Notes: a model not told the origin generated them from the letters alone. A stretch of 64,000 nucleotides of DNA from a virus (IMGVR_UViG_3300024264_000015:1-64000), one strand, 5' to 3'; numbered from the stretch's first letter, positions 39,559 through 59,113 are shown. Made by a program: numbers and translations.

Positions 39559-39587
39559 TTGACATGAAACTTATTTTCTGTTATAAT
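39559..39587 (+). promoter_or_regulatory. sigma70 promoter
   Basis: TTGACA-17-TATAAT. Confidence 0.88.
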
Positions 39588-40316: not shown

Positions 40317-41106
40317 TGGACTCAATCTGGCTTTTCGATGGAAACACCAAGGTAATACTGACTTCGAGCATGATTATGTAAGAACTGTTCAGTCTTTGGC
40401 AAAGTCCTATAACTGTGGAGAGATAGTCGTTTTAGGCGACGGCGGTAGTAACTATCGTAAGGAAATCTATCCAGAGTATAAAGCAAATCGTAAAGAACGA
40501 TATGCAGAACAAACAGAAAAAGAAGCAAAAGAATTTGAAATGTTCTTAGCAGAATTTTCAACTACTTTAAGTGCGTTAAAGCGTAAGGGATATCTTACGC
40601 TTAAATATCCTGGAGTAGAAGCTGATGATATTGCAGCTCTTATTTGTCAAAACAGAGAAGAGTTAGGTCTCGATGAGATTTGGATGATATCTTCAGATAG
40701 AGACTGGGATTTACTAGTCGATGGTAATATAAGTAGATTTTCTACAGTTACCAGAAAAGAAACAACACTCCTAAATTGGGACGAGCATTATGACTTTGAC
40801 CCTGAGTACTTTTTAACATATAAGTGCTTAACTGGAGATAAAGGAGATAACGTTCCTGGTGTTGATGGAATCGGGCCTAAAAGAGCCACACAGATTATAC
40901 AACAGTATGGAGATATCTTTGATATTATGGCGAGTTTGCCAATGGAAGGAAAGTACAAATTCATTCAGAACTTAAATGAGTTCGGAGAAGAAGGACTAGA
41001 GATTGGTATTAAACTCATGGATTTAACTTATGACGTAGACGGTGCTGTCTTAGGTCATGCAGAAGAAATTATAGGATTAGTAGAAGATTATGTCAGTAAA
41101 AATTGA
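40255..41106 (+). CDS. D15: flap endonuclease / 5'-3' exonuclease (T5 D15)
   Basis: VDGLNLAFR, YKANR, EADD, SSDRDW, GDKGDNVPGVDGIG. Confidence 0.93.
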   Translation: MAIQFMNHGKPTPNGNLLIVDGLNLAFRWKHQGNTDFEHDYVRTVQSLAKSYNCGEIVVLGDGGSNYRKEIYPEYKANRKERYAEQTEKEAKEFEMFLAEFSTTLSALKRKGYLTLKYPGVEADDIAALICQNREELGLDEIWMISSDRDWDLLVDGNISRFSTVTRKETTLLNWDEHYDFDPEYFLTYKCLTGDKGDNVPGVDGIGPKRATQIIQQYGDIFDIMASLPMEGKYKFIQNLNEFGEEGLEIGIKLMDLTYDVDGAVLGHAEEIIGLVEDYVSKN

Positions 41107-42862: not shown

Positions 42863-43825
42863 ATGAGCAAACTATTAGAAGAAAGAGATTATTATAAACC
42901 TTTTGATTATCCTTGGGCATTTGAGTTTTACAAAAAACAACAACAAATGCATTGGCTACCTGAAGAAGTGCCACTCCAAGATGACATCAAAGATTATAAT
43001 GTAAAACTATCAGAAGGCGAGAGGAAACTTATAGATAACATATTTAAGTTTTTTACACAAGCCGATGTAGATGTATGTTGTGGATATGCAAAGCATTATC
43101 TTCCAACATTTAAAGTACCAGAAATAAGAATGATGCTAGTAAGTTATGCTGCTATGGAAGCAGTACACCAAGAAGCGTATTCTTTATTGCTGGAGACATT
43201 AGGAAAATCAGATGACCAATACACAGAGTTTTTTGAAATACAAGCTATGGCAGAAAAGCATGAGTATTTAACTGATTTTAATATGTCAAACCCACACGAG
43301 ATTGCAAAGACAATGGCAGTCTATAGTGGTTTTACAGAAGGAGTACAACTATTTAGTAGTTTTGCTATCCTTTTAAACTATCCAAGACATAATCTTATGA
43401 AAGGTATGGGGCAGATAGTAACATGGTCTATAAGAGACGAGTCACTTCACGTTGAAGGATTATCAAAACTCTTTAGGGCTTTCATTGCAGAAAATCCAGA
43501 AATATGGACAGATAAACTAAAATATGAGATATATTGTGCAGCAGAGCGCGTTGTTGAATTAGAAGATAAGTTTATTGATGTTTGTTTTGATAAAGCAGAT
43601 ATCAAAGATTTAACAGCAAAAGAAGTGAAAGAATACATAAGATACATCGCCGATAGACGATTATTAGGTCTTGGTATGAAAGCAATATTCCATAGTACAG
43701 TTAATCCACTTCCTTGGATTGATATGCAAGTAAATGCAGTTGAGCATACCAACTTTTTTGAAAACCGTGCTACTGAGTATGCTAAGGCTAGTACACAAGG
43801 CAATTGGCAGGATATATTTAAATAA
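42863..43825 (+). CDS. nrdB: class I ribonucleotide reductase beta
   Basis: W.PEE, EAVHQEAY, EGVQLFSSF, DESLH, NFFE. Confidence 0.95.
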   Translation: MSKLLEERDYYKPFDYPWAFEFYKKQQQMHWLPEEVPLQDDIKDYNVKLSEGERKLIDNIFKFFTQADVDVCCGYAKHYLPTFKVPEIRMMLVSYAAMEAVHQEAYSLLLETLGKSDDQYTEFFEIQAMAEKHEYLTDFNMSNPHEIAKTMAVYSGFTEGVQLFSSFAILLNYPRHNLMKGMGQIVTWSIRDESLHVEGLSKLFRAFIAENPEIWTDKLKYEIYCAAERVVELEDKFIDVCFDKADIKDLTAKEVKEYIRYIADRRLLGLGMKAIFHSTVNPLPWIDMQVNAVEHTNFFENRATEYAKASTQGNWQDIFK

Positions 43826-44037
43826 TGAATAATTTACCAGAGTCCATAGAAATCGATGGTGTAACGTATTATACTGATGATATGGCAGAAAACCAAAGGC
43901 TTATTCTACTAGCTATAAGTCAATGTGATATAGAGTTAGATAGAGCAAAGCACATGATGGCTATTTGCCAAACAGCGAGACAAGCATATATAAATGATTT
44001 AGGTACACAACTTAAAGAAGATGCAAAAGAATCTTAG
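43825..44037 (+). CDS. hypothetical protein
   Basis: Coupled ORF. Confidence 0.7.
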   Translation: MNNLPESIEIDGVTYYTDDMAENQRLILLAISQCDIELDRAKHMMAICQTARQAYINDLGTQLKEDAKES

Positions 44038-45340
44038 ATTTTATATATTAGTAACTCATACTTTACACAAGGTTCAAAGACACTTTTCTTACTCAGGAAT
44101 ACAACCTAAGGAAGCTATGGTAGTTATAAATACTACTAATGATGTTTTCTATAAACAATGTAGCAACTGGTGTGAATCGCAAGGCATACCATGGATTCGT
44201 ACAGAATCTGATGGTACACCTGCGACTGGAAAGAATAGTGTCTTGGATTTGTTTTTAAAAAGTAAAGATGATTATATGGTAGCTGTAGATGGTGATGATT
44301 ATATCACTAAATATGGCTATGCTTATTATAAAAATGTTGTAAACCAAGATAACACCCCCGATAGTTTATGTCTATATAAACAACAATCCCAACTAATCAC
44401 CATTTTTGGTCAAAGAATATGGATTAATCTTATGGGACTCCCCACAGATTTAGATACTGAAATGCATATACGTAGAAGTCATTTAATGGGAGAAGTGTAC
44501 GCACACCATTTAAAAGATTATTATGAAGAAAAGTATGGAGACCTAGAACTATATGTAGAAGATTGTTTGAAACATACAAAAGAAAATTTATATTATGTCT
44601 ATAAGTATTATGAAAGATATAAAATATATGATAACGATTTTGCAGAATCTCATTGTAGACCTGTATTGTTTTCCAAAGCAGCAGCAAAAGAATGTCATTT
44701 TCCTAGTAATGTACCTGTAGGAGAAGATACTTTAGTATATTTACAACTTAAAAATGCACATTTTCAAGGAAGAATACATACTGAACTAGTAGATGAACTA
44801 AAAGAAAATATGACTTATCTTTATGACTGTATAAAAGCGGACGGAGACGATTTAGGAGCTATGCTAGGAATTACTCTTAATCAGACAGACTATACTTGGG
44901 TACGTTTAATAAATATAAAATTAAAAGAAATGGAACAAAAAGGAGAGTTACATGCTATTCCGCTACCTGTAAATAATTGTTTACCAAGTAAGTGGAAAAA
45001 AGATAACATAATACCTGCAAGACCCCAGTTTCCTCTTGATTTTAATTTAAAGAAATGGGATGAAAGATGGGAAGACAAACCCCAATACGATAAACCAAGT
45101 GATAAAGCTATGGAATTAATAGATAATATAAGAATGTGTGAGTATTATGCGTCTACGGAATCTGGAGTAGTATTGCAAATAATAGAACAACAAAAAGAAA
45201 ACAAAAAACAATTATTAGAAGTTTTAGGCCTAAGTCCTAATGCTATGGTCAAGTTTCCTAAAGGCTACTTTAAAAACTCTAGACCTTACTTTCACCACGC
45301 TACTCCTCAAGAAGTAGCACAACTTTATCCAAAATCATGA
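44021..45340 (+). CDS. GT-A-like protein
   Basis: ESDGTPATGKNSV, VDGDD (DxD), VGEDT. Confidence 0.5.
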   Translation: MQKNLRFYILVTHTLHKVQRHFSYSGIQPKEAMVVINTTNDVFYKQCSNWCESQGIPWIRTESDGTPATGKNSVLDLFLKSKDDYMVAVDGDDYITKYGYAYYKNVVNQDNTPDSLCLYKQQSQLITIFGQRIWINLMGLPTDLDTEMHIRRSHLMGEVYAHHLKDYYEEKYGDLELYVEDCLKHTKENLYYVYKYYERYKIYDNDFAESHCRPVLFSKAAAKECHFPSNVPVGEDTLVYLQLKNAHFQGRIHTELVDELKENMTYLYDCIKADGDDLGAMLGITLNQTDYTWVRLINIKLKEMEQKGELHAIPLPVNNCLPSKWKKDNIIPARPQFPLDFNLKKWDERWEDKPQYDKPSDKAMELIDNIRMCEYYASTESGVVLQIIEQQKENKKQLLEVLGLSPNAMVKFPKGYFKNSRPYFHHATPQEVAQLYPKS

Positions 45341-45966
45341 AAATCTTTATAGGTTATGAATCTGCATACCCACAAATGTTTGACGTCTGTGCAAAAAGCA
45401 TAAATCGTTACAATTCCAATCATGAAATCATACCACTCAAAAAATCGGAAATATCCGAATATACTCGTCCTTTTCAGAACGAGAGTACAGAGTTTGCCTT
45501 TACTCGTTTTCTAGTACCACAGCTCTGTGACTACGAAGGGGAAGCTTTATTCTGTGATGGAGATTTCTTATGGCTCTGTGACCCTGAAGAAGTTATGGAT
45601 TATTTTTCCGATGAACATACAGTTCATGTGGTAAAACATCCTAGTTTCCTCGTCAAACCTAAGAAAATGAAAAACAAGAAAAACCATGCTTATCCTAGAA
45701 AATACTGGTCAAGTCTTATGCTTTTCAATAATCCTAAGTGTAAAGAACTTACTTATGATTATGTAAACCAAGCCCCAGCGGGTGCATTGCATGAGTTACA
45801 TTGGGCAGATAGTATAGGGGAACTTCCTGCGCAGTATAATGCCATGGTAAATTATTACAAATTCAAGAGACCAAAAGCACTCCACTATACAGACGGCGGG
45901 CCTTGGTTAAATATAAACGAGTGTTCGGAGTACACAGCAAAATGGATGACACTTTACAAAAGTTAA
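45337..45966 (+). CDS. GT8-like glycosyltransferase (paralogue of 9987-10742)
   Basis: IFIGY, STEFAFTRFLVP, FCDGD, WSSLML, HYTDGGPW. Confidence 0.82.
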   Translation: MKIFIGYESAYPQMFDVCAKSINRYNSNHEIIPLKKSEISEYTRPFQNESTEFAFTRFLVPQLCDYEGEALFCDGDFLWLCDPEEVMDYFSDEHTVHVVKHPSFLVKPKKMKNKKNHAYPRKYWSSLMLFNNPKCKELTYDYVNQAPAGALHELHWADSIGELPAQYNAMVNYYKFKRPKALHYTDGGPWLNINECSEYTAKWMTLYKS

Positions 45967-46592
45967 CAGAAGATAAAAATATTATACTTGTGGGAAATTC
46001 AGTGGAAATGTTGGAGCATGAGTATGGGGAGTACATAGAAAAGTTTGATACAATTGTACGATTTGGAAATGGTATACCTGATAAACACCCTAAGAATATG
46101 GGCACTCGCACAGATATATGGATTACAGGGTGGCTTCGTATGATTAAACATAAACATTTTCCAACCGCGTATAAATTATTCAATCGTTGCAGAATACACT
46201 TGGATATAAAACCTAAAGAAATGAAACCTGAGTTTGAATATGAGACTATGTTCGATGATGACGAATTAAAAAATATTTATAAAATGGTAGGGGCAAAGAA
46301 TAATGTGAAGATGGGAAATAGACCGAGTGCAGGTTTCTTAGGTATATTATTTTTTCTTACTAAAACCAATCCTAAGTCAATTACTCTAATTGGCTTTGAC
46401 TTTTTCTCTAAAAAATTACCTTTTAAAAGTGGCAATGATTACCCTGCAAGTTGGCATCTACCACACAATTCACAAGAGGCTAGTCCGCATAATATTATGG
46501 AAAAACCACTTGTGCAAAAATGGGCAAAGGAAGGTAAGTTGAAATGGAAAATCTTATCTGACTTGAACGAAGAGTTCTTAGATTTTTCCTAG
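45942..46592 (+). CDS. GT29 (sialyltransferase)-like protein
   Basis: IILVGNS..YGEYIEKFDTIVRF..GTRTD (motif L-like); RPSAG..GFDF..H..E (S/VS-like). Confidence 0.65.
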   Translation: MDDTLQKLTEDKNIILVGNSVEMLEHEYGEYIEKFDTIVRFGNGIPDKHPKNMGTRTDIWITGWLRMIKHKHFPTAYKLFNRCRIHLDIKPKEMKPEFEYETMFDDDELKNIYKMVGAKNNVKMGNRPSAGFLGILFFLTKTNPKSITLIGFDFFSKKLPFKSGNDYPASWHLPHNSQEASPHNIMEKPLVQKWAKEGKLKWKILSDLNEEFLDFS

Positions 46593-47558
46593 TTTATATC
46601 CGACTTCAATTAATTTTCTTGATACTTGTTTCTGTTTATTTGATTTAAATAATAGAAGTTCGTTGAGTCTAGCATTTCTTAAATTTACAGGTATGTTCGG
46701 TATCTGTGCAGTCCACAAATCCCAAGGTATTCCTAATTGTACTCCTGCAGGTAGATACTCATATTTTTTAAGTAACCACTCTGGTTTTACATGGACACTA
46801 AATGCTTTTCTCATAATTACATTGTGATTAATAAAGTCTTTTGTATTTAGTGCTTCGTAAGTAAGAAGTTTATCATTTTTACCGTTTACATAAACTGGCA
46901 TTGCTTTTCCTCTGTAATGAAACTTCTCAAAGAAAGACTGATTCCAACTACCCATAACTCTTCTATCTATATGATGTGGATAGAGTACAGGATTGATTCT
47001 ATTAGTCTGACCTCTTGCAAATAGTAATTTTTCATCGAAAGTAACCATTTTATCCCAATTTATAATAAAGAACTGGGGGTCAACCATACCTTTACTTACA
47101 GTTTCTTTTCTACCTACATGCTCTTCTTCAAACATTTGACTTTTCCAACCTAAAATATCATAGTACTTTTTATAAGTAGGATGGTCTTTATAGACATGAT
47201 TATGGCTATATAAAACAAATTTATCATCAAAGTATTTATTATCAGGTAATTCGTTTTTCCAATTATTTCTTAAGAATATTCTTGCACCACCTGCGTACAT
47301 AACTCTTTTGTTTAGTCCGCCTTTATCTTTCCAATACTCTTTTAAGTATCTTATAGCTCTAGCTTGTTCTTCACCTTTCCAGAAACTTTGATATACTTTT
47401 ACGTTTTCTATATTACTTATTACCCACTCTACTACACTTTTATCCCAGTCATCTTCGTGAATAAATAAATGCAAGCGAAAGTCCTCGTCTTTCTCAATCA
47501 GAGAAGCAAGTGTAAATAAACTAAAATCTTTTATGTATGTATGTACTATCTCAATCAT
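46578..47558 (-). CDS. putative glycosyltransferase-like protein
   Basis: GT8-like N-terminus (FTLASL..LHLF) and FFIINWD; no clear DxD. Confidence 0.35.
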   Translation of the reverse strand: MIEIVHTYIKDFSLFTLASLIEKDEDFRLHLFIHEDDWDKSVVEWVISNIENVKVYQSFWKGEEQARAIRYLKEYWKDKGGLNKRVMYAGGARIFLRNNWKNELPDNKYFDDKFVLYSHNHVYKDHPTYKKYYDILGWKSQMFEEEHVGRKETVSKGMVDPQFFIINWDKMVTFDEKLLFARGQTNRINPVLYPHHIDRRVMGSWNQSFFEKFHYRGKAMPVYVNGKNDKLLTYEALNTKDFINHNVIMRKAFSVHVKPEWLLKKYEYLPAGVQLGIPWDLWTAQIPNIPVNLRNARLNELLLFKSNKQKQVSRKLIEVGYKLGKI

Positions 47559-48462
47559 CTTGTTTTTTATATTCCCAAAAATTATTTATAAACCTTTCAA
47601 GTCTTTCTTCAGCATCGTCATCAAAATCAAATATGATTCCTGAATTTTTTGCTGATAGAATCTTACGTATAGTATGCGAGGCTTTTGTCCCAGATACTGC
47701 ATGGTAAATGCTTTCGTATGTTAATAAATTCTTTTCTCTTTCTTTTTTAGTATGACTTATCATACCAAGTTTTTTGTTTAATAATAATGCTACTATGCCC
47801 ATTTCACTGTTTGGCATTGTAGCAACTTCTTTACAGTTGTATAAAATTTCATGCCCACTTTGTTTTTTATTTAATACTTTATCTGCTCCAAAATCTTTTT
47901 TAAATTTAGCCATATAAAGTGCATTAGTGATAGGATGTGGTTTTATTACATAACCTTGTTTTATGTATTCTCTCATTCTACCCCAATGTATAACTCTATC
48001 TTTACATATTAAATTACTACCTGGTGGAAAAATTACTTTATCATAATGTTCTTGTGTTTGTGCTAAAATGTATTTATCTTCTATACAATTTAGTATTTTT
48101 TCTATTCTTTCTTCGTCAATTTCTATATCTGAATTAGCAATAGATAGCATTAACTTATCGTTAATTTTTATGGAATTTGTTTTTACATAAATTCCTCTAC
48201 CTAAAAAATCTGTGTATAACCACTTTCGTATTGTAAACAATTCATTTGTGTTAAACCAAACGTCATATTCAAATCTAACACCTTCTCTCCACTCTGGTAT
48301 TACTCTTTGTTTGAACTTTAGTAATGCGTCTCTTTGATGGTCGGGTCTATAGCAAGAGCCTGATTTCATAAAGTGAGTAACCTTATCTCCAAGACTCTCA
48401 TTACTTGCCATCGGAACTAATTTATCTTTTTTGACTGGACTTTTATTTATTTTTAGTTCCAT
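47551..48462 (-). CDS. GT-B capsule-biosynthesis-like (KpsC/KpsS-like) protein
   Basis: VIKPHP and NSEMGIVALLLNK motifs. Confidence 0.5.
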   Translation of the reverse strand: MELKINKSPVKKDKLVPMASNESLGDKVTHFMKSGSCYRPDHQRDALLKFKQRVIPEWREGVRFEYDVWFNTNELFTIRKWLYTDFLGRGIYVKTNSIKINDKLMLSIANSDIEIDEERIEKILNCIEDKYILAQTQEHYDKVIFPPGSNLICKDRVIHWGRMREYIKQGYVIKPHPITNALYMAKFKKDFGADKVLNKKQSGHEILYNCKEVATMPNSEMGIVALLLNKKLGMISHTKKEREKNLLTYESIYHAVSGTKASHTIRKILSAKNSGIIFDFDDDAEERLERFINNFWEYKKQDD

Positions 48463-48601
48463 TCTTTAACTCAAATAATTGTGTTTCTATATTTTTTAAT
48501 CTATCTTCTTGTTCTACGATTGTGTCCATTAGTGCTACAACGATGCTTTCTAGTTTATCGTTGACATACTTGGGGGTTATATCTTTGTCCTTTAGTTTCA
48601 T
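48443..48601 (-). CDS. 52-aa coiled-coil peptide (not in ORF track)
   Basis: MKLKDKDITPKYVNDKLESIVVALMDTIVEQEDRLKNIETQLFELKNGTKNK; abuts the upstream stop. Confidence 0.7.
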   Translation of the reverse strand: MKLKDKDITPKYVNDKLESIVVALMDTIVEQEDRLKNIETQLFELKNGTKNK

Positions 48602-51600
48602 TTATTCTGTCCATGTTGAACCGTCCCAGTAACTTGCACTAAAGTCGCTTATACTTGCGACTTCCGTGTCAAAGATTGTACCCGCCTGAGACGCTGTTAT
48701 TCTTTCAAATACTGTGGTACTCGTATTAAATGTAGTTGTGGTAAGGTGGTCAGTATCTCTAGTAGTTTCTGTTACCTTACCTGTGGCAAATGTTGTGGTT
48801 GTTGTTTTGCCTGTTTCAAATTCTGTTGTTCTAGTAGTTTCAAAAGTAGTTGTTGTGTCATACGCTGTAGACTTAGATGTCGTTGTAGACCTATTTGTCT
48901 CAAATGTAGATACTGTACTTCTGCTTGATGCTGTATCTCTTGCAGTAAGTGTTGCTCTAGCAGTATTAAATGTACTTGTAGTTTCTCTACTAGATTGCGT
49001 AGCTCTAGTGGTTATTGTTCCTAAAGTTGTAGCATATACTGTTGTTGTATCTCTACTTGTAGTTGTTCCTCTAGCTGTATTGAACGTAGTAGTAGTTGCT
49101 CTAGAAGTTCCTGTTACTCTTTGTGAGCCTCTACTTGTTAAGTATGCTGTTTCATATGCAGTACTTCTTGATGTGTTTGTATTTCTAGTAGTTCCGAATG
49201 ATGTATTATCTACATACGCTGTTGTTCTTGAAGTTTCTGTTCCTCTGCTTGTATTTGTGCTTCTACTTGTATTTGTACTTCTGCTTGTTGTAAATACTGT
49301 ATTATCTACATATGCTGTTGTATAGTTTGTATTTACTAAGAATACAGTAGTGAAATTAGTACTATCTACGTATGCGGTTGTTCTTGTAGTATTCGTATTT
49401 CTTGTAGTTGCAAAACTTGTATTATCTACATAGGCTGTTGTTCTACTTGTTTCAGTAGTTCTAGAAGTGTTTGTTGCTTGTGTAGTTGTATATGCAGTTT
49501 CATTTGTAAATGATGTATTATCTACATATGCTGTTGTAAATGATGTATTATCTACATACGCTGTTGTTCTTGAAGTATTTGTGCTTCTTGTAGTTGAGAA
49601 TGAAGTATTATCTACATAAGCTGTTGTAAATGATGTATTATCTACATACGCGGTTGTTCTAGCTGTATTTGTACTTCTTGTAGTTGAGAATGAAGTATTA
49701 TCTACATATGCTGTTGAGAAACTTGTATTATCTACATATGCTGTTGTTCTAGCTGTATTTGTGTTTCTTGTAGTTGCAAATGCAGTGTTATCTACATATG
49801 CTGTTGTAAATGAAGTGTTATAACTTGTGTTGTTTGTAAATCCTGTATCTCTACTTGTGTTAGTGGCTTGTGTTGTATTATATGCTGTGCTATTTGTAAA
49901 CCCAGTATTTCTACTTGTATTCGTTGCTTGTGTTGTATTATATGAAGTAGAGTTTGTAAAGCCTGTATTTCTACTTGTATTTGTAGCCTGTGTAGTTGTT
50001 CTAGATGTATTCGTGTTTCTAGAAGTGTTTGTGTTTCTACTTGTATTTGTTGCTTGCGTAGTATTGTAAGCAGTATTTCTAGAAGTATTCGTGTTTCTAC
50101 TTGTATTCGTTGCTTGTGAAGTATTGTAAGCAGTATTAAATGAAGTATTATTTGCAAATCCTGTAGACCTAGTTGTATTATATGAAGTATTACGTGCACC
50201 AGTTGCTCTAGTTGTATTTACTTGTCTAAATGCTGAACTTGCAGAAGTACCTGTTCTTCTTTGATAAGTTCCAGAATATCCACTATTCTGACCACCACCC
50301 CAGCCGGAATAATAGTTTCCTGGGCTAGACCAGTATACTGTAGTAATTCTATTGTAGTAATAAGTCAGGTATGAAGTAGAGTCTGTAGTTGACCTTGTAG
50401 TTCCATAAGAAGTATTCCTACTAGTATTTGTACCTCTAATTGTACCTCTACTTGTACCAAATGATGTGTTATCTACATAAGCTGTACTGTTTGTAAATCC
50501 TGTACCTCTAGTTGTTCCGAATGAAGTGTTGTCTACATATGCTGTACTATTTGTAAATGAAGTAGAGTTTGTAAATGAAGTACTAAAAGATGTGTTGTCT
50601 ACATATGCAGTGCCTCTAGTTGTATTTGTATTTCTTGTTGTACCAAATGAAGTGTTATCTACGTATGCAGTACTTCTACTTGTGTTTGTATTTCTACTTG
50701 TTCCAAAAGAGGTGTTATCTACATAAGCAGTAGACCTACTTGTATTTGTACTTCTTGTTGTGCTTCTTGTTGTACTTCTCGATGTATTTGTTGCTTGAGT
50801 AGTTGTATACGAAGTAGAGTTTGTAAATCCTGTAGACCTAGAAGTATTTGTAGATTGTGTAGTTGTTCTAGATGTATTTGTTGCTTGAGTAGTTGTATAC
50901 GAAGTATTATTAGTAAATCCTGTACTTCTACTTGTATTCGTAGACTGTGTAGTTGTTCTACTCGTATTAGTAGATTGTGTAGTATCATAACTTGTATTGT
51001 TACTAAATCCTGTACTTCTACTTGTGTTAGTAGACTGTGTAGTTGTTCTACTTGTGTTTGTACTTCTAGCTGTATTTGTATTTCTTGTTGTACCAAATGA
51101 AGTGTTGTCTACATATGCTGTTGCTGTTCCATATACAGTAGTTCTAGAAGTGTTTGTTGCTTGTGTAGTTGTATACGAAGTAGAGTTTGTAAATCCTGTG
51201 TCTCTTGATGTATTTGTATTTCTACTTGTAGTTACACTTGTATTAGAAGCTCTAGAAGTTGTTCTACTCGTATTAGTAGATTGTGTAGTATCATAACTTG
51301 TATTATTCGTAAATCCTGTATTATCTACATAAGCTGTTGATGTATTATATACAGTAGTTCTAGAAGTGTTTGTTGCTTGTGTAGTTGTATACGCTGTCTG
51401 GTTTGTAAATCCTGTAGACCTAGATGTACCAATTACAGTATCAAAACTTGTAACATATGTTGTAGTTGTATTGTAGTTGGTAGTAGTGCTACGTGCGGTA
51501 TTAAAGGTCGTAGTAGTTGTATACGTAGTAGTAGTATCGTGACTTGTTAAAAAAGTGGTTGTAGTTGTATACGCTGTTGTAGTATTAAATACTGTTGTAG

Positions 51601-52018
51601 TACCTTGTGTAGTTGTAAAGGTAGTTGTAGTATTGAATGTTGTAGTAGTTGTAAATAGAGTTGTAGTTGTAGTGGTTGTATTATATGTTGTAGTCGTATT
51701 GTGAGTAGTGCTTCTACTTGTATTCGTAGCTCTATCCGTATCAAATGTTGTTACTCTATCTGTGTTATATGTTGTTGTTGTGCCACGAGTTGTATCAAAT
51801 CCAGTAGTCGTATTAAACGCTGTTACCTGTACACCTGATATGGTAGTTCTAGCTGTTGCTGTATTTCTTGAAGTTTCGTGAACGACAGAAAATGGCCCTT
51901 CTAGAGCACCACTATCGTTTACGTATACTTCATTAACCCTTCGTATTGTGCCATTGTCGTTGATGGCGAGAAAGGATATCTGACGTAATGTACCATTGTC
52001 ATTAACATATATTGCCAT
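48602..52018 (-). CDS. Thr-rich self-complementary beta-hairpin fibre protein
   Basis: 1138 aa of 4/6-residue Thr repeats; antiparallel complementarity i+j=1155; unique central insert; in the tail operon. Confidence 0.8.
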   Translation of the reverse strand: MAIYVNDNGTLRQISFLAINDNGTIRRVNEVYVNDSGALEGPFSVVHETSRNTATARTTISGVQVTAFNTTTGFDTTRGTTTTYNTDRVTTFDTDRATNTSRSTTHNTTTTYNTTTTTTTLFTTTTTFNTTTTFTTTQGTTTVFNTTTAYTTTTTFLTSHDTTTTYTTTTTFNTARSTTTNYNTTTTYVTSFDTVIGTSRSTGFTNQTAYTTTQATNTSRTTVYNTSTAYVDNTGFTNNTSYDTTQSTNTSRTTSRASNTSVTTSRNTNTSRDTGFTNSTSYTTTQATNTSRTTVYGTATAYVDNTSFGTTRNTNTARSTNTSRTTTQSTNTSRSTGFSNNTSYDTTQSTNTSRTTTQSTNTSRSTGFTNNTSYTTTQATNTSRTTTQSTNTSRSTGFTNSTSYTTTQATNTSRSTTRSTTRSTNTSRSTAYVDNTSFGTSRNTNTSRSTAYVDNTSFGTTRNTNTTRGTAYVDNTSFSTSFTNSTSFTNSTAYVDNTSFGTTRGTGFTNSTAYVDNTSFGTSRGTIRGTNTSRNTSYGTTRSTTDSTSYLTYYYNRITTVYWSSPGNYYSGWGGGQNSGYSGTYQRRTGTSASSAFRQVNTTRATGARNTSYNTTRSTGFANNTSFNTAYNTSQATNTSRNTNTSRNTAYNTTQATNTSRNTNTSRNTNTSRTTTQATNTSRNTGFTNSTSYNTTQATNTSRNTGFTNSTAYNTTQATNTSRDTGFTNNTSYNTSFTTAYVDNTAFATTRNTNTARTTAYVDNTSFSTAYVDNTSFSTTRSTNTARTTAYVDNTSFTTAYVDNTSFSTTRSTNTSRTTAYVDNTSFTTAYVDNTSFTNETAYTTTQATNTSRTTETSRTTAYVDNTSFATTRNTNTTRTTAYVDSTNFTTVFLVNTNYTTAYVDNTVFTTSRSTNTSRSTNTSRGTETSRTTAYVDNTSFGTTRNTNTSRSTAYETAYLTSRGSQRVTGTSRATTTTFNTARGTTTSRDTTTVYATTLGTITTRATQSSRETTSTFNTARATLTARDTASSRSTVSTFETNRSTTTSKSTAYDTTTTFETTRTTEFETGKTTTTTFATGKVTETTRDTDHLTTTTFNTSTTVFERITASQAGTIFDTEVASISDFSASYWDGSTWTE

Positions 52019-52021
52019 TTT

Positions 52022-52243
52022 TTAACTCGAATAGACAAACCATACATGACCGTCACTCGTTCCTGAAGTATTTGTTGGTGCTGTTGTTGTTATTGTAAAA
52101 GGTAGTCTAGCTTTTGCGATAGTACCAGAGCCAATCTTTCCTGATGCGACCGCTCCTTGAAAGTTTCTGCTAGAGTCAACTACCTGTGTTCCATCAATCT
52201 TGATACCTGCGTCTTCGATGTTAAAATCTAATTTTTGTCCCAT
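52022..52243 (-). CDS. small fibre adaptor-like protein
   Basis: C-terminal TTAP..SDGHVWF motif typical of tail accessory proteins. Confidence 0.55.
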   Translation of the reverse strand: MGQKLDFNIEDAGIKIDGTQVVDSSRNFQGAVASGKIGSGTIAKARLPFTITTTAPTNTSGTSDGHVWFVYSS

Positions 52244-52244
52244 T

Positions 52245-55200
52245 TTATACCTCTATTGTTGTTCTTATGAACTTGTATGCCATTGTGTCTGCACTTGCTG
52301 GCGTTACTCTTAATCTTACATTACCTGCACTTACATCTGCGTCAAATGTTGCTTGTGCTCCATTGTCAAAGATAGACGCGTACTGTGTTAAGTATACATC
52401 TGACCCATCATGGAATAGGAAAATTTCTAATGCTTGATAATCTGAATCTGTTGTGTTTTTAATCTGTACTACATATTTAGCAGTTCTAAATACAGTAGTT
52501 GCAAAACTATCTAGTGTAAATACTGTCGTTGCAGATGAACTTCCTGTACCAACATCCATACCAGCTACTTCGTCTATGTGAAGTTTTTGTGGTGGATTAG
52601 TGTCTTGAATACCTATGCTACCTGCTACATTTACTTTATTAGATGTGCTTCCACCAAACCCTAAATCTCCTCCAAATGTAATACTTCCTGTCATTGTTTT
52701 ACCACCAAGTGCTGCACTTGATAATTGTGTAGTTGTTATAGAGTTATTTGCAATCTCACTTGACCCAATAGCGTTTGCTGCTATTTTACTGGCGTCTATA
52801 GCATTGTCTTGAATTTTTGCAGTTGTTACTGAATTACCAGCTAATTGTGCTGTATTAATTAGACCATCTTGTATAAAGCTAACGCTATTTATTGCGTTTG
52901 CAGCTAGTTGTGTTGCTGTGATAGAAGCGTTTGGTATTTTTGCAGAAGTAATAGCATTATCAGCTATCTCTACTGCTGTTATTGTACCATTTGGTATTTT
53001 AGCACCTGATACAGAGTTATCAGCTAATTTACCTACTGTTACTGCTCCTGTGCCTATTTGTTCTTCTGTTACTGCACCTGAAGCTATTTTGTTTACTGTT
53101 ACGGAGTTAGAACCAAGTTTTGCTTCTGTTACAGAACCAGTTGATAAATGAATAGCATCTATACTTCCTGTTACTAACTCTGCTGAATCAACGGAGTTAG
53201 AAGCAATATGTCTGGCTAGTACAGCGTCTGTTGCTAGTTTAGTAGCATCTATTGAGTTGTCAGCCATATTGCCTGTAGCAATAGTATTGGCTGCTATTTT
53301 TCCTGTTGTGACCGAGGCGTCTGCTAGATGCTCGTTATCTATACTTCCTGCAACATAATGTTCTGAATTTATAACATCATCTGCTATTTTTGTGCCGTCT
53401 ACTATGTCTGCGGCTAAATGTATTCTGTCTATACTGCCTGATACGAGTTCTGAACTGTCTACAGAGTTTGCTGCTAAGTGTAATGCTCCTACAGAGCCAG
53501 TAATTAATTCTGAAGCTCCGACAGCATTTGCTGCTATCTTACTAGCGTCTACAGCATTTGTTCCTATTTTTGCACTTATTACTGCACCAGAAGCTAACTG
53601 TGTAGAGCCTACTGCTCCTCCAGCTATTTCTGCAGCTCCTACAGCATTGTCTGCTATATGAGAAGCATCAATAGACCCTGTTGATATTTTATTAGCATTT
53701 ATTGCGTTATTTGCAATGTTTGGCCCTGTAATAGTTTCTGAGCCTACTTTGGCACCAGTGACTGCGTCATCTGCTAAGTGTATAGTATCAATGCTACCTG
53801 TCACTAATTCTGCTGAATCTACTGAGTTTGCTGCTAGTTCACTTGCTGTTATGCTTCCTGCGACTATCTTACTTGCATTTACTGTGTTGTTTGCAATCGC
53901 ACTTGCTGTTCCTGTTAAGTTACCTGTAACGTTGCCTTCTACATTTGCTACTATAGTACCTGTTGTAATTGTTAGGTCACCTGTTGAAGCACCTGTAAAT
54001 GTGCCTGTACCTACTTTAAATTTATCTTCACTTTCATCAAATCCTATAAATGCGTTATTTGAATCTCCTCTTTCAATTACTATACCAGCGTCTCCATTTG
54101 GAGACCCTGTTGTACCTGTACCTAATTCTAATAATGGGTCAGATATTGTAGTTGTAGTAGAGTTAACAGTCGTTGTTGTACCGTTTACTGTTAAGTTTCC
54201 TGAAAGTGTAACGTTTCCTGTGAATGTTTGACCACCTAATGCATCTGATTTAAGTTCAGAAGCTGATACTGCATTTGCTGATATTTCACTGTTACCAACT
54301 GCATTTGCGGCTATCTTTGCTCCTGTTACAGCATTGCCTGCTATATGTATTGCATCAATAGAGCCAGAGATTAATTCTGCGCTGTCTACTGAATTGTCTG
54401 CTAGTTCGCTTGAACCTACAGCACCTGCATTGATGTGTCTTGCTAGTATTTGGTCTGTTGCAATTTTTGCTGAAGTAACTTGGTTAGCTGCAATATGTAT
54501 TGTGTCAATACTACCAGTTGCTATTTCTGAACTATCTATTGAGTTTTCAGCTATATGTGTTACATCTATAACACCTGTACCTATTTTTGCAGCAGTGATT
54601 GAATTATCCCCTAAATGTATAGTATCTATACTACCTGTTACTAACTCTGCTGAATCTACTGAGTTTGCTCCTAAGTGGTCTGCTGTTATTGTTGCTGTAG
54701 GTATGTGTCTTGCAACGATTGAATTTTGTGCTATCTTAGTTCCGTCTACTGCGTTATCTGCAATATTGGCTAAGGCTATTGTATTGGCGGCTATTTTTGC
54801 GCCTGTTACTTGTAAGTTTCCTATATGTGCAGTATCTATACTACCATCTACTAAATGTTCTGAATCTATTGAGTCATCTGCAATTTTTGAGCCACTTACT
54901 GCATCCGCTCCTATTTTTCCACTAGTTACTGCTCCTGTACCTATTTTTGCTTCTGTTACTTGTGAAGCTCCAATATGTATAGTATCAATGCTACCTGATA
55001 CAAGTTCAGAACTATCAATAGAGTTTGCAGCTATTTGTGTAGAACCTACACTATTAATTCCTACATTGGAACTATTTACTATTGCTGTCCAACCCATGTT
55101 AGCGTGTGCTGAACATTGGTAATACAATATTTGAGGAGTAGTACTCGTAACGGCAATTTCTGTGTATGCACCTGAACTTCCTGCTGTTCCGTTATTTGTA

Positions 55201-56120
55201 ACTCCTGTAGTATAAGCCGTTGTTTTATTGGCTTCTAAATAAAATCTGAAAGGATGGTTAGCGTTTGACGAGTCATCTTGCTTAAATTTATAGGTATTCC
55301 CAGGTTGTAATACTAATACTGGAGACTCTTTGCTTTCGAACTTATATCCTAGAGTGCTACCATTTCCGTAGTCACCATGTGCGGAAGTTTTTGTAACAAC
55401 CGTTACATCATATTCATAAGTTCCAAATTCTTGAATTGATTTTGCGTTCTTGTGTATTTCACTTGAAGTAACATTATCAGCAACTATTTTTGCTGTACTC
55501 ACTGAATTTGTGCTTAGTTTTGCACCTGTTACTTGTAAAGCTCCAATATGTATAGTGTCAATACTACCTGTTATTAGTTCGCTAGAGTCTACTGAGTTTG
55601 CGCCAAGTTGTGTTGAAGTAATACTCCCATCAGCAATATGATGAGCAGTAACTGCATTTTGGGCAATCCTCGCTGTTGTTATTTGATTTTCAGCAATCTT
55701 GTCTGTAGTTACAGCATTATCAGCTATCTGTAATGTTTCGATTGCGTTTGTTGCTATCTCTGAAGTGTCTACTGAGTTTGCAGCTATCTCGTTGGAAGTA
55801 ACAGCGTTAGCAGCTATTTTGGCTGTTGTGACTTGTCCTGTTCCAAGGTGAATAGTATCAATAGAACCACTTACTAACTCACTTGAATCTACTGAGTTTG
55901 CAGATATACCTGCGTTTGTTACTGAGTTATCTCCTACACCTGTTACCGCACTAGCTTGTAGCTGTGCAGCTCCAACAGAGTTTGTAGCAAGTTCTGAGGT
56001 GGTAATAGCATTAACTGCTATTTCAGAAGCACCAATAGCATTTGCAGCTATCTTTGATGCTACTACACTATTGTTTCCTATTGAATCTTGTTGTACTAAA
56101 AATTTACCGATTAGTGGCAT
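52245..56120 (-). CDS. long repeat tail-fibre protein with an inserted cupredoxin-like domain
   Basis: 5/10-residue repeats (NAVTxAKIA, GSIDTIHL, NSVDSAEL); HPF..YYQCSAHANMG insert. Confidence 0.75.
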   Translation of the reverse strand: MPLIGKFLVQQDSIGNNSVVASKIAANAIGASEIAVNAITTSELATNSVGAAQLQASAVTGVGDNSVTNAGISANSVDSSELVSGSIDTIHLGTGQVTTAKIAANAVTSNEIAANSVDTSEIATNAIETLQIADNAVTTDKIAENQITTARIAQNAVTAHHIADGSITSTQLGANSVDSSELITGSIDTIHIGALQVTGAKLSTNSVSTAKIVADNVTSSEIHKNAKSIQEFGTYEYDVTVVTKTSAHGDYGNGSTLGYKFESKESPVLVLQPGNTYKFKQDDSSNANHPFRFYLEANKTTAYTTGVTNNGTAGSSGAYTEIAVTSTTPQILYYQCSAHANMGWTAIVNSSNVGINSVGSTQIAANSIDSSELVSGSIDTIHIGASQVTEAKIGTGAVTSGKIGADAVSGSKIADDSIDSEHLVDGSIDTAHIGNLQVTGAKIAANTIALANIADNAVDGTKIAQNSIVARHIPTATITADHLGANSVDSAELVTGSIDTIHLGDNSITAAKIGTGVIDVTHIAENSIDSSEIATGSIDTIHIAANQVTSAKIATDQILARHINAGAVGSSELADNSVDSAELISGSIDAIHIAGNAVTGAKIAANAVGNSEISANAVSASELKSDALGGQTFTGNVTLSGNLTVNGTTTTVNSTTTTISDPLLELGTGTTGSPNGDAGIVIERGDSNNAFIGFDESEDKFKVGTGTFTGASTGDLTITTGTIVANVEGNVTGNLTGTASAIANNTVNASKIVAGSITASELAANSVDSAELVTGSIDTIHLADDAVTGAKVGSETITGPNIANNAINANKISTGSIDASHIADNAVGAAEIAGGAVGSTQLASGAVISAKIGTNAVDASKIAANAVGASELITGSVGALHLAANSVDSSELVSGSIDRIHLAADIVDGTKIADDVINSEHYVAGSIDNEHLADASVTTGKIAANTIATGNMADNSIDATKLATDAVLARHIASNSVDSAELVTGSIDAIHLSTGSVTEAKLGSNSVTVNKIASGAVTEEQIGTGAVTVGKLADNSVSGAKIPNGTITAVEIADNAITSAKIPNASITATQLAANAINSVSFIQDGLINTAQLAGNSVTTAKIQDNAIDASKIAANAIGSSEIANNSITTTQLSSAALGGKTMTGSITFGGDLGFGGSTSNKVNVAGSIGIQDTNPPQKLHIDEVAGMDVGTGSSSATTVFTLDSFATTVFRTAKYVVQIKNTTDSDYQALEIFLFHDGSDVYLTQYASIFDNGAQATFDADVSAGNVRLRVTPASADTMAYKFIRTTIEV

Positions 56121-56121
56121 T

Positions 56122-56454
56122 TTATGTTTGCTCCAAATAAGATAGAACTACGTCTATCGAGCTTGACGTGTTTGACTGTACTTTAATTGCATCACCAGCT
56201 TCTAATACTACTTTTGCGTCTCCACCAATTGGTGCGAGTGTTGAACCTGCTGGTATTTCTATTCCATGAACTATACTGATGTGATTAGTTGTACTTGCGT
56301 CATAAAATTGAGCAGTAGCATTTATATCTGCGCCGCCAACATTACATAGATATAAACCTATAATCGTTGTTGTTGTTGAACTAGGACAAGTGTATACTGT
56401 AGATAAACTTGTTCCTATGTCATTTCCTGTTGCTGTTTTAAATGCTGATGCCAT
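56122..56454 (-). CDS. small virion structural protein
   Basis: VYTCPS..KVVLEAGDAIKV; in the tail operon. Confidence 0.6.
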   Translation of the reverse strand: MASAFKTATGNDIGTSLSTVYTCPSSTTTTIIGLYLCNVGGADINATAQFYDASTTNHISIVHGIEIPAGSTLAPIGGDAKVVLEAGDAIKVQSNTSSSIDVVLSYLEQT

Positions 56455-56458
56455 AATC

Positions 56459-56668
56459 TTATCCTAATGCTATCGAGAAAGCTACTAGGTCATCTGTTGT
56501 TAATGCTCCTGGTACATGACTGGCTATAGTTATTATTGAGCCGTCTGCTTTCTTTGTATAAATCTTTTGGTCAGCCACATTCATAGCAAGTTCATGTGTT
56601 TGTAAATCGCTTGACTGTGGCACAGATAATGCTGTTTCTGACCTTTTTGGTTTAATAACGTGAGACAT
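56459..56668 (-). CDS. small protein with a fibre-attachment N-terminal domain
   Basis: IKPKRS..P..L..ELAMN..KIY, similar to the N-terminus of the upstream fibre. Confidence 0.55.
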   Translation of the reverse strand: MSHVIKPKRSETALSVPQSSDLQTHELAMNVADQKIYTKKADGSIITIASHVPGALTTDDLVAFSIALG

Positions 56669-56670
56669 TC

Positions 56671-58314
56671 TTAGAAAGTACCTCCGTCTAATGTGTTAGT
56701 CCATGTTATTGTTCCGTTGTTTCCTACTTGTAATACTTGTCCTACAGAGTGTGTAGAGTCGTATGTTCCGATTGATAAAGAAGCAAAAGAGCTACCACCA
56801 TTTGCACCATATAATAGTGTACCTTCTGGTAGTGCGCTTACTCCTTTTAATCTTGCTGTGTCTGAATTAAGTTCTATTGTAGTATTATCTACATTTACAG
56901 ATAATGTATTTCCTGATTTTGCTAAACCGTTTCCTGCTGTAACACTACCAGCTCCTGAGAACTGTGTAAATGTTAAACTATCTGTACCAATGGAAGCTGA
57001 GCCAGTTATGTTTGAAAGTACAAAACCTGCATCTGCATCACTACCTTCTTCAACAAATGTAAACATACCACCAGTAACTTCTGCTGCACTGTCTGCATCT
57101 GTTGTTCTTGTAAGAACGTATGGGTTTCCAACATCACCTACTGTTGTTACAGAGTAGATACCGTTTTGTTTTCCGTCTGTCTGTGCTTTTACAAGTACTC
57201 TGTCTCCAGATGTTAAGTTAGTGCTATCTATAGAAACCGCACCATTACCACTTGCTGTAAGTGTTGCACCGACGCCACTAGTACCATTATTATAAGTTGT
57301 ATTTAAATTACTCTGTGAGCCAACTCTTACTGAATCTTTGATATCTAGTGCTTGTTTTACAGAATCAACATATGCTTTAGTTGTAGCATCAGTTGCTTGT
57401 GCTGGAGTACCAATATTAGTTATTTTGTTACCGCCCATATCAACTGTTTGTGAGCCTGCGACTGTTAAGCCACCATCAAAGTCAGCTGATTGTGTGAATG
57501 TTGCTGTACCAGTAACTGTTACTGTATCTCCTGAATTATCTCCAAGAATAACATTACCGTCTGCTTTTAACTGTCCGTCTACTTCTAAGTTTGAAGAGAA
57601 AGTCGCATTATTAGTTACTGCTAATGTACCTGCGATTGCTGTATTACCTTCTCCGCTTGTTACTGTGAATTTGTCTGTGTTAATTGTTAAGTTACCAGCA
57701 GCTGATATAGCTCCATTAGAAGATAAAGAATTAACTGTTGCAGAACTTGATACATCTAAAGTACCATTTAAATCTACGTTCTTGCCAAGTTCAATTTCTT
57801 CACTACCGTTTGTGGTAATTAATTTAATATAAGAAGTACCGCCTTCATTAATATCTAACGCTGCTGCATTATCATCTAAGATAGTGATTGAGTTAGATTG
57901 TGAGGCTAAAGATAAAGTACCTCCATGAGTGACTGTTACTGTACCAGCTGCATTTAATCCTAATGCTCCTGCTGATGAAATTGTTATGTCGCCACTTGTT
58001 ACTGTTTTTAAAGTAAGTGCTGAAGCTGAAGTTGCTAATGTATTGTTAGCACCTGTAATTGCTGTAGCCCCAGTAAGTATTCTATCTATTTTACTATCTG
58101 AGCCAACAATAACTGCTGAGTTAGCTGTTAAAGTCCCATGTGCATGGTCGAGCATTGCAACATACAAATCTCCACCGATTGTTGTTACTGCTGAACTACT
58201 AGGGTGACCTATAAATAGCTTTTGCGAATTAGAAGAATACGCTAACTCACCAGCACCTAACGAGGTAGGAGCAGCGGTGGAACTACTTCTTTTGATTTTA
58301 ATGGTTTGTGCCAT
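56671..58314 (-). CDS. tail fibre protein
   Basis: IKIKRS..GELAY; DATTKAYVD; GDRVLVKAQT..NGIY; C-terminal DGGTF. Confidence 0.75.
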   Translation of the reverse strand: MAQTIKIKRSSSTAAPTSLGAGELAYSSNSQKLFIGHPSSSAVTTIGGDLYVAMLDHAHGTLTANSAVIVGSDSKIDRILTGATAITGANNTLATSASALTLKTVTSGDITISSAGALGLNAAGTVTVTHGGTLSLASQSNSITILDDNAAALDINEGGTSYIKLITTNGSEEIELGKNVDLNGTLDVSSSATVNSLSSNGAISAAGNLTINTDKFTVTSGEGNTAIAGTLAVTNNATFSSNLEVDGQLKADGNVILGDNSGDTVTVTGTATFTQSADFDGGLTVAGSQTVDMGGNKITNIGTPAQATDATTKAYVDSVKQALDIKDSVRVGSQSNLNTTYNNGTSGVGATLTASGNGAVSIDSTNLTSGDRVLVKAQTDGKQNGIYSVTTVGDVGNPYVLTRTTDADSAAEVTGGMFTFVEEGSDADAGFVLSNITGSASIGTDSLTFTQFSGAGSVTAGNGLAKSGNTLSVNVDNTTIELNSDTARLKGVSALPEGTLLYGANGGSSFASLSIGTYDSTHSVGQVLQVGNNGTITWTNTLDGGTF

Positions 58315-58334
58315 GATTATTTCCTATCGAGCTA

Positions 58335-58715
58335 TTAAAAGCTCCCTGCGTCTACCGTGTCTGAGTCGGCTGAATTGTTACCTATCATTATAGGGACAAA
58401 TTCAAAGTTTCCACTCGATGTTTCACGGTAAATCTTTAACTGATTATCATCAGTATCATAAAATAAATCTCCTTCAGCCAAGTCTGTTGTACTTGATGTA
58501 GGAGCTGTTGTTGAGACAAAGAATTGATTTGCTAGAAAGTTAAGTGCACCTTCTACAGTCGTTTCACTTGCCAGTGTACCTACAGGATTAGAGAGACTAA
58601 TTCCTGCAGCGTCATCAGCTGTACCAGCAATTGCGTTAGATATTGTTAGAGTTGTACTTTGAGATGTAGCACTGATGCTTGTATTATTAGGAGTAATAGT
58701 TATCGTTGTTGCCAT
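58335..58715 (-). CDS. tail accessory protein
   Basis: EGDLFYDTDD; C-terminal DAGSF. Confidence 0.6.
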   Translation of the reverse strand: MATTITITPNNTSISATSQSTTLTISNAIAGTADDAAGISLSNPVGTLASETTVEGALNFLANQFFVSTTAPTSSTTDLAEGDLFYDTDDNQLKIYRETSSGNFEFVPIMIGNNSADSDTVDAGSF

Positions 58716-59053
58716 TATCTTGTTACATTTGGTGTAACTCTTGCTACACCCTCGATTAATCTAGTCATGCTTGAGGCTGATGAATTGAATAATTCTAAAT
58801 CATAGTAATACTTTCCTGCCGCAACGTTTGCTGTTACAGTATAAGGCAAAGCCATTTTTATAGTTCCATTGGCGGAGTCTATAACTGTACAGGTAAATGT
58901 TGCTGAGAGAGTATTTGAAGTAGGAGTAGGTCTTAATTGTGCAGTTGCGGTGTGATTTGATAAGTTTATTGGTTCGCCATCTTGGGCAAGACTGAGCGAC
59001 AAAGCGAAATCTGCGCCCTGGTCGATAACTATATCATATTTTCCTGCTGCCAT
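58715..59053 (-). CDS. Ig-like tail/baseplate accessory protein
   Basis: DIVIDQGADF..GKYYYDLE..RLIEG..V.P.VTR. Confidence 0.65.
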   Translation of the reverse strand: MAAGKYDIVIDQGADFALSLSLAQDGEPINLSNHTATAQLRPTPTSNTLSATFTCTVIDSANGTIKMALPYTVTANVAAGKYYYDLELFNSSASSMTRLIEGVARVTPNVTR

Positions 59054-59074
59054 ATTTGTACTCCTATATGCTAA

Positions 59075-59113
59075 ATTATATCAAAAACTTGAGGTGGTGT
59101 CAAGAACTATTTT
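59075..59113 (-). promoter_or_regulatory. internal sigma70 promoter heading the fibre + glycosyltransferase unit
   Basis: - strand aaaatagttcTTGACA(59098-59103)-17-TATAAT(59075-59080). Confidence 0.88.

Follow-up and report, generated by a model that had tools for sequence, protein, structure and literature searches.

In flagellin O-glycosylation by Maf and FlmG, dedicated glycosyltransferases (GTs) place nonulosonic acids, activated with cytidine monophosphate (CMP), on serine and threonine residues of the filament protein in the cytoplasm, and giant viruses coat their own fibrils using a virus-encoded GT cluster. In the streptococcal serine-rich repeat adhesins, a very Ser/Thr-rich fibrillar protein is encoded beside several cytoplasmic GTs (GtfA/GtfB and GT8 enzymes such as GlyE). 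Among phages, the precedent comes from mycobacteriophages, whose own GTs glycosylate the virion (Freeman et al. 2023, as cited in PMC12582341 and PMC12894461); as far as these citing papers describe it, the GTs are encoded next to structural genes and are proposed to act on virion proteins. Here, we analysed a window of 64,000 nucleotides (IMGVR_UViG_3300024264_000015:1-64000) with which a 90.3-kb viral contig from IMG/VR begins, and in which a minus-strand lateral-fibre operon meets a short run of GT-like genes on the plus strand. We propose, at a probability of roughly 0.5, that the GT-B-like enzyme E of this operon, helped by the coiled-coil peptide F, would O-glycosylate the threonine-rich hairpin protein G, probably with a CMP-activated sugar from the host, and that the GT-like proteins A, B, C and D would extend the glycan. 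The locus is therefore a credible, although unproven, candidate for a new kind of virion glycosylation.

The layout is close to that of the mycobacteriophages, since the fibre operon contains D and E and borders directly on A-C. However, the host is here presumably Gram-negative, the enzyme families differ (KxHP GT-B, GT29-like and GT8-like) and the system is known from genes alone. In addition, the candidate acceptor here is a dedicated Thr-rich hairpin fibre and not a capsid or tail-tube protein. The resemblance to the serine-rich repeat system extends to single proteins, because the model of D aligns to GlyE (Z 15.2) and its lack of a DxD motif recalls GtfB, which to our knowledge is non-catalytic. 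In contrast to that system, the locus has no homologue of the GT4 proteins GtfA/B and no accessory Sec, its fibre protein is an ordered hairpin and not a disordered repeat, and it belongs to a phage and not to a cell. The flagellin and giant-virus systems differ from this one in that no genes for sugar-nucleotide synthesis were found in the phage contig.

The fibre operon ends in a hairpin gene, a coiled-coil gene and two GT-like genes

Eleven minus-strand genes, with spacing that ranges from 20-bp gaps to 20-bp overlaps, run from a sigma-70 promoter at 59075-59103 (minus strand) down to position 46578. The promoter (TTGACA-17-TATAAT) matches the consensus at 12 of 12 positions, carries a TG ahead of the -10 element (an extended -10) and is followed by AGGAG, 7 nt ahead of the ATG of the first gene at 59053. 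This run is a lateral-fibre operon: its first gene is LtfC-like, and two further products, I1291 and L547, match tail-fibre families. [quoted passage not shown] F and E overlap by 20 bp, and E and D by 8 bp. The packing of E behind G and F with overlapping start and stop codons suggests a single mRNA and, since D and E are both co-oriented and tightly packed behind the hairpin gene, G-F-E-D are probably co-transcribed.

D converges with the plus-strand gene C, which ends at 46592, so that the two genes share 15 bp (46578-46592). No terminator-like hairpin was predicted at this overlap, and it was retained in every non-redundant relative checked, even where D identity was only ~40%. A preliminary description of the window had read the promoter as the head of a tightly packed run of fibre genes, the Thr-rich protein, a coiled-coil peptide, a KPHP GT-B-like gene and a second GT-like gene, with three plus-strand GT-like genes meeting this run across 15 bp. 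The consensus match of the promoter, the gene order and the coordinates all bear this out. Moreover, in the 80 related viral loci that were retrieved (E identity 58-98%), the whole arrangement was syntenic in every one.

E and F accompany threonine-rich proteins in unrelated phages

A tblastn search with E against 50,697 phage records returned 28 records in other lineages. E, either alone or as an F-E pair, directly followed a Thr-rich protein in five of the six phage lineages examined, namely the marine T5-like phages, Caulobacter T7-like phages, Caulobacter phage Cr30, Vibrio phage KVP40 and the Stenotrophomonas DLP_6 group. In the Caulobacter phages Lullwater and BL199, gp41 (26% Thr) and gp042 (27% Thr) are followed by the E homologues gp42 and gp043, respectively. 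Lullwater is a 44-kb podovirus in which E was the sole homologue found of the five GT-like proteins, and its gene is flanked by the holin and the tail fibre genes; when Lullwater gp42 alone was used for a scan, only gp42 itself was recovered. In Cr30, gp90 and gp89 (19-20% Thr) precede the E homologue gp88, and the coiled-coil protein gp91 is encoded nearby. In KVP40 (locus L011, 4878-6540), the order is 0254 (197 aa, 29% Thr and 19% Ser), the coiled-coil protein 0255 (72 aa) and the E homologue 0256. The C-terminal half of 0254 is a miniature Thr/aromatic/Arg hairpin, with a mirrored-pair score that none of 300 shuffles reached.

In DLP_6, an unannotated open reading frame (ORF) of at least 1351 aa (13% Thr) runs across the record ends and is followed by the coiled-coil protein gp001 and the E homologue gp002. 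The Thr-rich proteins of the DLP_6 group are 1200-1400 aa long with 12-15% Thr, and the layout was repeated in seven metagenomic relatives. The DLP_6 ORF (KU682439.2; locus L095 9861-12261 joined to locus L010 1-1655) consists of repetitive T/A/V/S-rich sequence that is immunoglobulin-like by eye, and its C-terminus resembles a Hint/intein-type domain (...SHN). It occupies what we take to be the position at which T4 has wac.

High Thr content is itself rare. When all ORFs of at least 100 aa in this genome and nine unrelated loci were considered, only 6 of 189 had 19% Thr or more, and all six lay just upstream of an E homologue. The partner peptide is also shared, because F and DLP_6 gp001 are 36% identical over 42 aa (pairwise E-value 9e-8). 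F-like Glu/Lys-rich peptides of 53-72 aa precede the E homologues in KVP40, the DLP_6 group and a lineage represented by loci L108, L109 and L111, and in Cr30 an F-like peptide of 66 aa is encoded two genes upstream of the E homologue. E and F are clearly not distributed independently of Thr-rich proteins. Full-text literature searches returned no description of a module made up of a Thr-rich protein, F and E, and the PHROG database gave no function for F, the small protein H encoded ahead of G, or the Thr-rich partner proteins.

G is a long hairpin rich in hydroxyl residues

G is 1138 aa long and is composed of 34.9% Thr, 12.5% Ser and 10.5% Asn, with the units TNTSR and DNTSF repeated 28 and 14 times, respectively. 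Its symmetry was assessed by pairing each residue i with residue c-i and counting aromatic-to-Arg/Gln/Lys pairs for each centre c. At i+j=1153, 91 mirrored pairs were present, compared with 8.8 ± 6.2 (mean, sd) at other centres, and the mirror continued without insertions or deletions across about 480 positions per arm. G homologues of 914-1621 aa showed the same symmetry peak, always centred at about length+14. Therefore, repeats are added to or removed from the two arms in concert. G is a chain folded back as a hairpin, a reading that the mirrored-pair signal makes well founded.

The ladder residues of G are spaced 4 or 6 apart. The position at offset -2 from an aromatic, Arg or Gln ladder residue is Thr in 95% of cases, and offsets -1 and -3 are S/T/A and N/T/S; the opposite face is composed of N/S/T/A/G/V. 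G is predicted to be a very long two-stranded beta-ribbon, with Thr and aromatic-Arg/Gln cross-strand pairs on one face and Asn, Ser, Thr and small residues on the other. In agreement with the preliminary description, which had placed the N and S of TNTSR opposite the ladder, offsets -1 and -3 fall on that face, assuming a beta-strand conformation. The N- and C-terminal ends of G were found in 56 and 79 of the 80 related loci, and its Tyr/Trp/Gly-rich turn (residues about 546-605; window 50210-50380) in only seven. A variable turn on conserved ends is the pattern that would be expected if a conserved base carried a tip that binds receptors and varies.

Dozens of N-x-S/T sequons in G had been put forward in the same description as evidence of glycosylation. 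We counted 87 sequons, compared with 57 ± 5.3 in composition-preserving shuffles; since this excess arises from repeated NTS/NTT units in a T/S/N-rich protein, it is a by-product of the repeats and not independent evidence. N-linked glycosylation of the sequons on the face opposite the ladder would account for their number, for the Asn and Ser on that face and for a density that relatives of G keep at 54-80 per 1000 aa. Nevertheless, we consider it very improbable: none of the five GT-like ORFs resembles GT41 (HMW1C/NGT-type) enzymes or oligosaccharyltransferases by Pfam or fold, and the Thr-rich partners in Caulobacter phages contain few Asn residues. O-linkage to Thr or Ser is more plausible, because both faces of G are dominated by residues with hydroxyl groups and Asn is scarce in the Caulobacter partners.

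E resembles beta-Kdo transferases and keeps a CMP-binding motif

An AlphaFold2 (AF2) model of E (predicted local distance difference test, pLDDT, 85.6) was searched with Foldseek. WbbB, KpsC and KrkA were the top matches (probability 1.0; E-value 1.6e-5), and the first 11 ranked matches were all beta-Kdo GTs. In a VIA alignment with KpsC, E gave Z 9.8 over 216 aligned residues (rmsd 4.2). E is therefore predicted to share the modified two-domain GT-B fold of KpsC/KpsS (GT107), WbbB (GT99) and KrkA (GT140), and members of the E family weakly match the Pfam families Capsule_synth (E-value 0.0016) and GT52 (E-value 0.0005). E also shares the (K/R)xHP motif with these enzymes. K174-P175-H176-P177 is invariant in 31 close homologues, and the K, H, P and T of KxHPxT are invariant across eight distant homologues (21-34% identity), which in addition keep an S/T-E-x-G segment, PG(S/T)N and an invariant Asp.

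The (K/R)xHP motif binds CMP in enzymes of families GT29, GT38, GT42, GT52 and GT80 and of GT99 and GT107, and in the retaining Kdo enzymes the nucleophile is the Asp of QxxxD, whose Gln binds the carboxylate (PMC12887879). At the sequence level, neither QxxxD nor a conserved Gln was present in E in the alignments of close and distant homologues, and the segment ahead of KxHP contains the invariant PG(S/T)N instead. Since E keeps KxHP and lacks QxxxD, we have not filed it in GT99, GT107 or GT140, and its donor and mechanism cannot be read from the fold. E differs from the beta-Kdo GTs further in its low identity to them (10-15%) and in its setting, which is beside a protein-coding partner in a phage and not in a polysaccharide locus. 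The known enzymes act on glycolipid or O-antigen, whereas the presumed acceptor of E is a protein. E looks like a member of a new family of GT-B enzymes that depend on CMP-sugars.

The absence of QxxxD also fits another explanation, in which E and F help Thr-rich hairpin fibres to fold or assemble, either as a chaperone pair or with E binding the fibre and not modifying it, and the other GTs act elsewhere. The conserved linkage joins E and F, and not the other GTs, to the Thr-rich protein, and F is a small coiled-coil peptide. Small coiled-coil chaperones of phage fibres exist, such as T4 gp57A, as do GT-fold pseudo-enzymes that chaperone their substrates, such as GtfB of the serine-rich repeat systems. 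However, the nucleotide-binding signature of E is invariant even in homologues of 21-34% identity, which argues for retained catalysis, and we regard this explanation as unlikely.

Homologues of D were seen only within this phage group. Its AF2 model (pLDDT 83.2) matched UGGT, LgtC, XXYLT1 and glycogenin in Foldseek (E-value 2e-7), and VIA alignments with GT8/GT24-type enzymes gave Z 14-15.7 over 216-247 residues, including 15.7 for WbbM and 14.7 for LgtC. No DxD motif was found in D; in 18 homologues, the strand that should hold it has YAGG(A/N)R or a similar sequence and lacks a conserved pair of Asp residues. D may be a metal-independent enzyme or a non-catalytic partner. No match to D was obtained in Pfam, PHROGs or, by tblastn, in cultured phages, and hhalign detected no relation between D and DLP_6 gp003.

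The plus-strand GT-like genes belong to a ribonucleotide reductase operon

On the plus strand, nrdA, nrdB and a 70-aa ORF (41090-44037; Pfam ribonucleotide reductase large subunit 7e-109 and small subunit 4e-76) lie upstream of A-B-C, and start and stop codons overlap or abut from nrdA through to C. The nearest perfect plus-strand promoter to this operon is at 39559-39587. The first of the three, A (A439; 44021-45340, plus strand), is a GT2-like GT-A protein from a variable island, with an invariant DGDD (D90, D92 and D93) and G234-E235-D236. The protein encoded in the window has no Pfam match; 5 of 10 family members weakly match PF00535 (Glycos_transf_2; best E-value 0.0055), and in the ESM Atlas A scored 0.95-0.97 to GT2 clusters. 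B (B209; 45337-45966, plus strand) is a GT8-like GT-A protein with an intact DxD (invariant D74 and D76) and a match to phrog_28018 (4.5e-43). Its match to PF01501 (GT8) is weak, at 15 bits against a cut-off of 24.3, as are those of 3 of 9 relatives, and there is a weak match to Caps_synth too. In the ESM Atlas, B scored 0.99 to viral clusters labelled 'glycosyltransferase family protein', 13-14% of whose members are GT8.

C (45945-46592, plus strand), which probably starts at the ATG at 45945, is GT29-like, i.e. related to the sialyltransferase family, and matches PF00777 with 28.5 bits (cut-off 23). PF00777 was also matched by 13 of 15 relatives (best E-value 4.8e-9). A profile search of the PDB with C returned only ST6Gal1 and ST3Gal1, at E-values of about 0.02 and at motifs L and S; motif L aligns clearly and motif S weakly (rpsaGflgi vs PSSGMLGI). 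C differs from the GT29 family in that it is about 215 aa long, soluble and phage-encoded, and only about 50 residues (motif L) are confidently aligned. The same PDB profile searches returned nothing for D and chance-level matches only for E, A and B (E-values 0.1 or higher). Taken together, folds, motifs and Pfam matches support all five ORFs A-E as GT-like, although unequally, and agree with the types guessed in the preliminary description: GT-A for A, GT8-like for B, GT29-like for C, KPHP GT-B-like for E and a second GT-like protein for D.

A was present in 41 of the 80 related loci; the others contain radical S-adenosylmethionine (SAM)/SPASM and short-chain dehydrogenase/reductase (SDR)-like genes in its place, or neither. 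That A is swapped or absent across relatives is what one expects of a surface-glycan locus. In loci L022 (12464-13862) and L087 (12467-13961), a radical SAM/SPASM gene (Pfam 8.6e-13 and 8.1e-9, respectively) and a short SDR-like gene lie between C and B. B-C homologues adjoin each other in DLP_6, 115 kb from its E homologue and beside a glutaredoxin gene and further GTs. In Pelagibacter phage Mosig, a B homologue lies downstream of nrdAB among methyl-, sulfo- and glycosyltransferases. In Synechococcus phage S-SCSM2R (locus L178, 6001-9526), the B homologue is annotated as GT24-family and lies 1.4 kb from annotated KdsB and KdsA, a loose link to Kdo. The genes after the B homologues in Mosig and S-SCSM2R were considered as C homologues and rejected, and they contain no KxHP motif.

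Because A-B-C are part of the nrdAB operon, A is absent from about half of the relatives and B occurs without E, the link of A-C to the fibre is one of adjacency. The expectation that the GT genes and the hairpin protein travel together holds for E, which follows Thr-rich proteins in five of six lineages; the remaining four genes are distributed differently.

This setting would fit GT genes that remodel host lipopolysaccharide (LPS) or capsule in the course of infection, for example to block superinfection or to release progeny from debris, with the fibre nearby only as part of a shared, fast-evolving host-interaction region. A-B-C overlap within the nrdAB operon, with a consensus sigma-70 promoter upstream, B homologues occur near other transferases in Mosig and near KdsB/KdsA in S-SCSM2R, and the closest structural relatives of E and D build LPS or capsule. 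We nevertheless find envelope remodelling rather unlikely, since it leaves unexplained why in five lineages, one of them represented by a 44-kb podovirus where no homologues of the other four GTs were found, E lies behind a Thr-rich protein of a rare kind, and why the fibre operon includes D and E with codons that overlap.

The position of A-B-C in a nucleotide-metabolism operon, and of the DLP_6 B-C pair beside a glutaredoxin gene, would also fit GTs that, like the glucosyltransferases of T4, add sugars to modified bases of the phage DNA. However, no ThyA-family hydroxymethylase and no ThyX gene was found in the 90-kb contig, the linkage of E to Thr-rich proteins would go unexplained, and we know of no GT29 or KxHP enzyme that acts on DNA. 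We therefore rejected DNA glycosylation as the most improbable of the explanations considered.

A proposed pathway for glycosylation of the hairpin fibre

Glycosylation of G would unite these observations as follows. The region is the lateral-fibre operon of a marine siphovirus, abutted at its end by a small and variable set of genes for building glycans. Cytoplasmic E, together with F, would transfer a CMP-activated acidic sugar to Ser/Thr hydroxyls of G, or to a primer sugar, either ahead of fibre assembly or in its course. Its donor would be drawn from the host pool (Kdo or a similar ulosonic acid), and further sugars would be attached by B (GT8-like), C (GT29-like) and, in phages that have it, A (GT2-like). 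We infer G as the acceptor, the O-type linkage, which sugar is donated and whether A-D have any role on G. Every known host of an E-bearing phage is Gram-negative and hence makes CMP-Kdo. Because no genes for donor synthesis were found in the phages searched, we guess that the host pool supplies the donor, and such a host origin is possible. That the glycan shields the fibre, keeps it soluble or mediates adhesion is speculation.

Several results weigh against this proposal. Besides the missing QxxxD of E and the missing DxD of D, the margin of the fold assignment of E is modest, with Z 9.8 to KpsC against 7.7 for the next unrelated GT-B. No CMP-sugar synthetase (CTP_transf_3), NeuB or KdsA (DAHP_synth_1) scored above cut-off in the contig or in five other complete E-bearing genomes. 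The lineage of L108, L109 and L111 has the F-E pair and no adjoining Thr-rich gene. A-B-C belong to the nrdAB operon, B occurs without E in Caulobacter jumbo phages as well as in Mosig and S-SCSM2R, and neither the composition of G nor its sequon density covaries with the presence of A. Finally, the hairpin signal implies tight pairing between the strands, with which a dense coat of sugars might interfere.

A broader claim is more tentative still: that a Thr-ladder hairpin, a coiled-coil peptide and a new KxHP GT-B family form a widespread, previously undescribed module that O-glycosylates fibres with a host Kdo-like sugar and carries swappable GT and radical-SAM genes is possible on sequence grounds, yet falls short of probable. 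If true, no earlier virion glycosylation system would be on record for phages with Gram-negative hosts, and the module would extend virion glycosylation from mycobacteriophages to abundant marine phages and to culturable phages of Vibrio, Caulobacter and Stenotrophomonas. It would also add a new class of protein-directed ulosonic-acid transferase, i.e. a new enzyme family whose fold is kin to the capsule and LPS Kdo transferases and which acts on protein. Furthermore, it would provide a function for an unusual fibre, in which aromatic-Arg pairs hold about 480 mirrored positions in each arm. A coat of glycans on fibres that bind receptors matters for host range, for the stability of the particle and for its recognition by antibodies or grazers. 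As the module is present in laboratory phages (KVP40 0254-0256 and Lullwater gp41-gp42), the proposal is directly testable.

The remaining fibre genes and the genome

The fibre operon opens, on the minus strand as throughout, with N112 (58715-59053), an LtfC-like fibre adaptor that matches phrog_1084 (6e-28), phrog_3304 'L-shaped tail fiber protein assembly' (2e-19) and, under the cut-off, Pfam LtfC (1e-4). It is followed by M126 (58335-58715), a small fibre-associated protein with a weak match to tail-fibre PHROG families, and by L547 (56671-58314), a fibre- or decoration-like protein that matches phrog_30390 (4e-49) and also tail-fibre and head-decoration families. K69 (56459-56668) is a small protein with a tail-fibre N-terminal motif, matching the N-termini of tail-fibre PHROG families with E-values of 1e-8 to 6e-4. 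J110 (56122-56454) is a small conserved protein (phrog_26609, 3.5e-13) that is syntenic in relatives, and I1291 (52245-56120) is a long, repeat-rich tail fibre protein (phrog_892 'tail fiber protein', 8e-125). Between I and G lies H73 (52022-52243), a small protein that matches no Pfam or PHROG family; it was found with 63-100% identity in 56 of the 80 related loci, always directly upstream of G.

The contig has 36% G+C and is estimated to be 86% complete, and the phage is one known solely through metagenomic sequence. Megablast of the region against the phage collection gave no match. Perfect TTGACA-N17-TATAAT sites number 11 in the 90-kb genome, compared with ~0.2 expected by chance from a rough base-composition estimate. 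Every spacer is 17 nt and most sites have a TG before the -10 element. Eight are on the plus strand (225, 5592, 11907, 16684, 20253, 26268, 35235 and 39559) and three on the minus strand (5375, 59103 and 89088). These perfect promoters mark operon starts in replication and structural regions alike, and therefore promoter type gives no indication of timing class.

Among the products of the contig are a large terminase, a major and a minor tail protein, a protease-capsid fusion protein and, at the tape-measure position, a 1247-aa ORF, and the phage is therefore a siphovirus; another ORF of the same contig is 2475 aa long. The fusion is apparent in a 683-aa protein at contig positions 80163-82214, which matches both head maturation protease and major head protein families.

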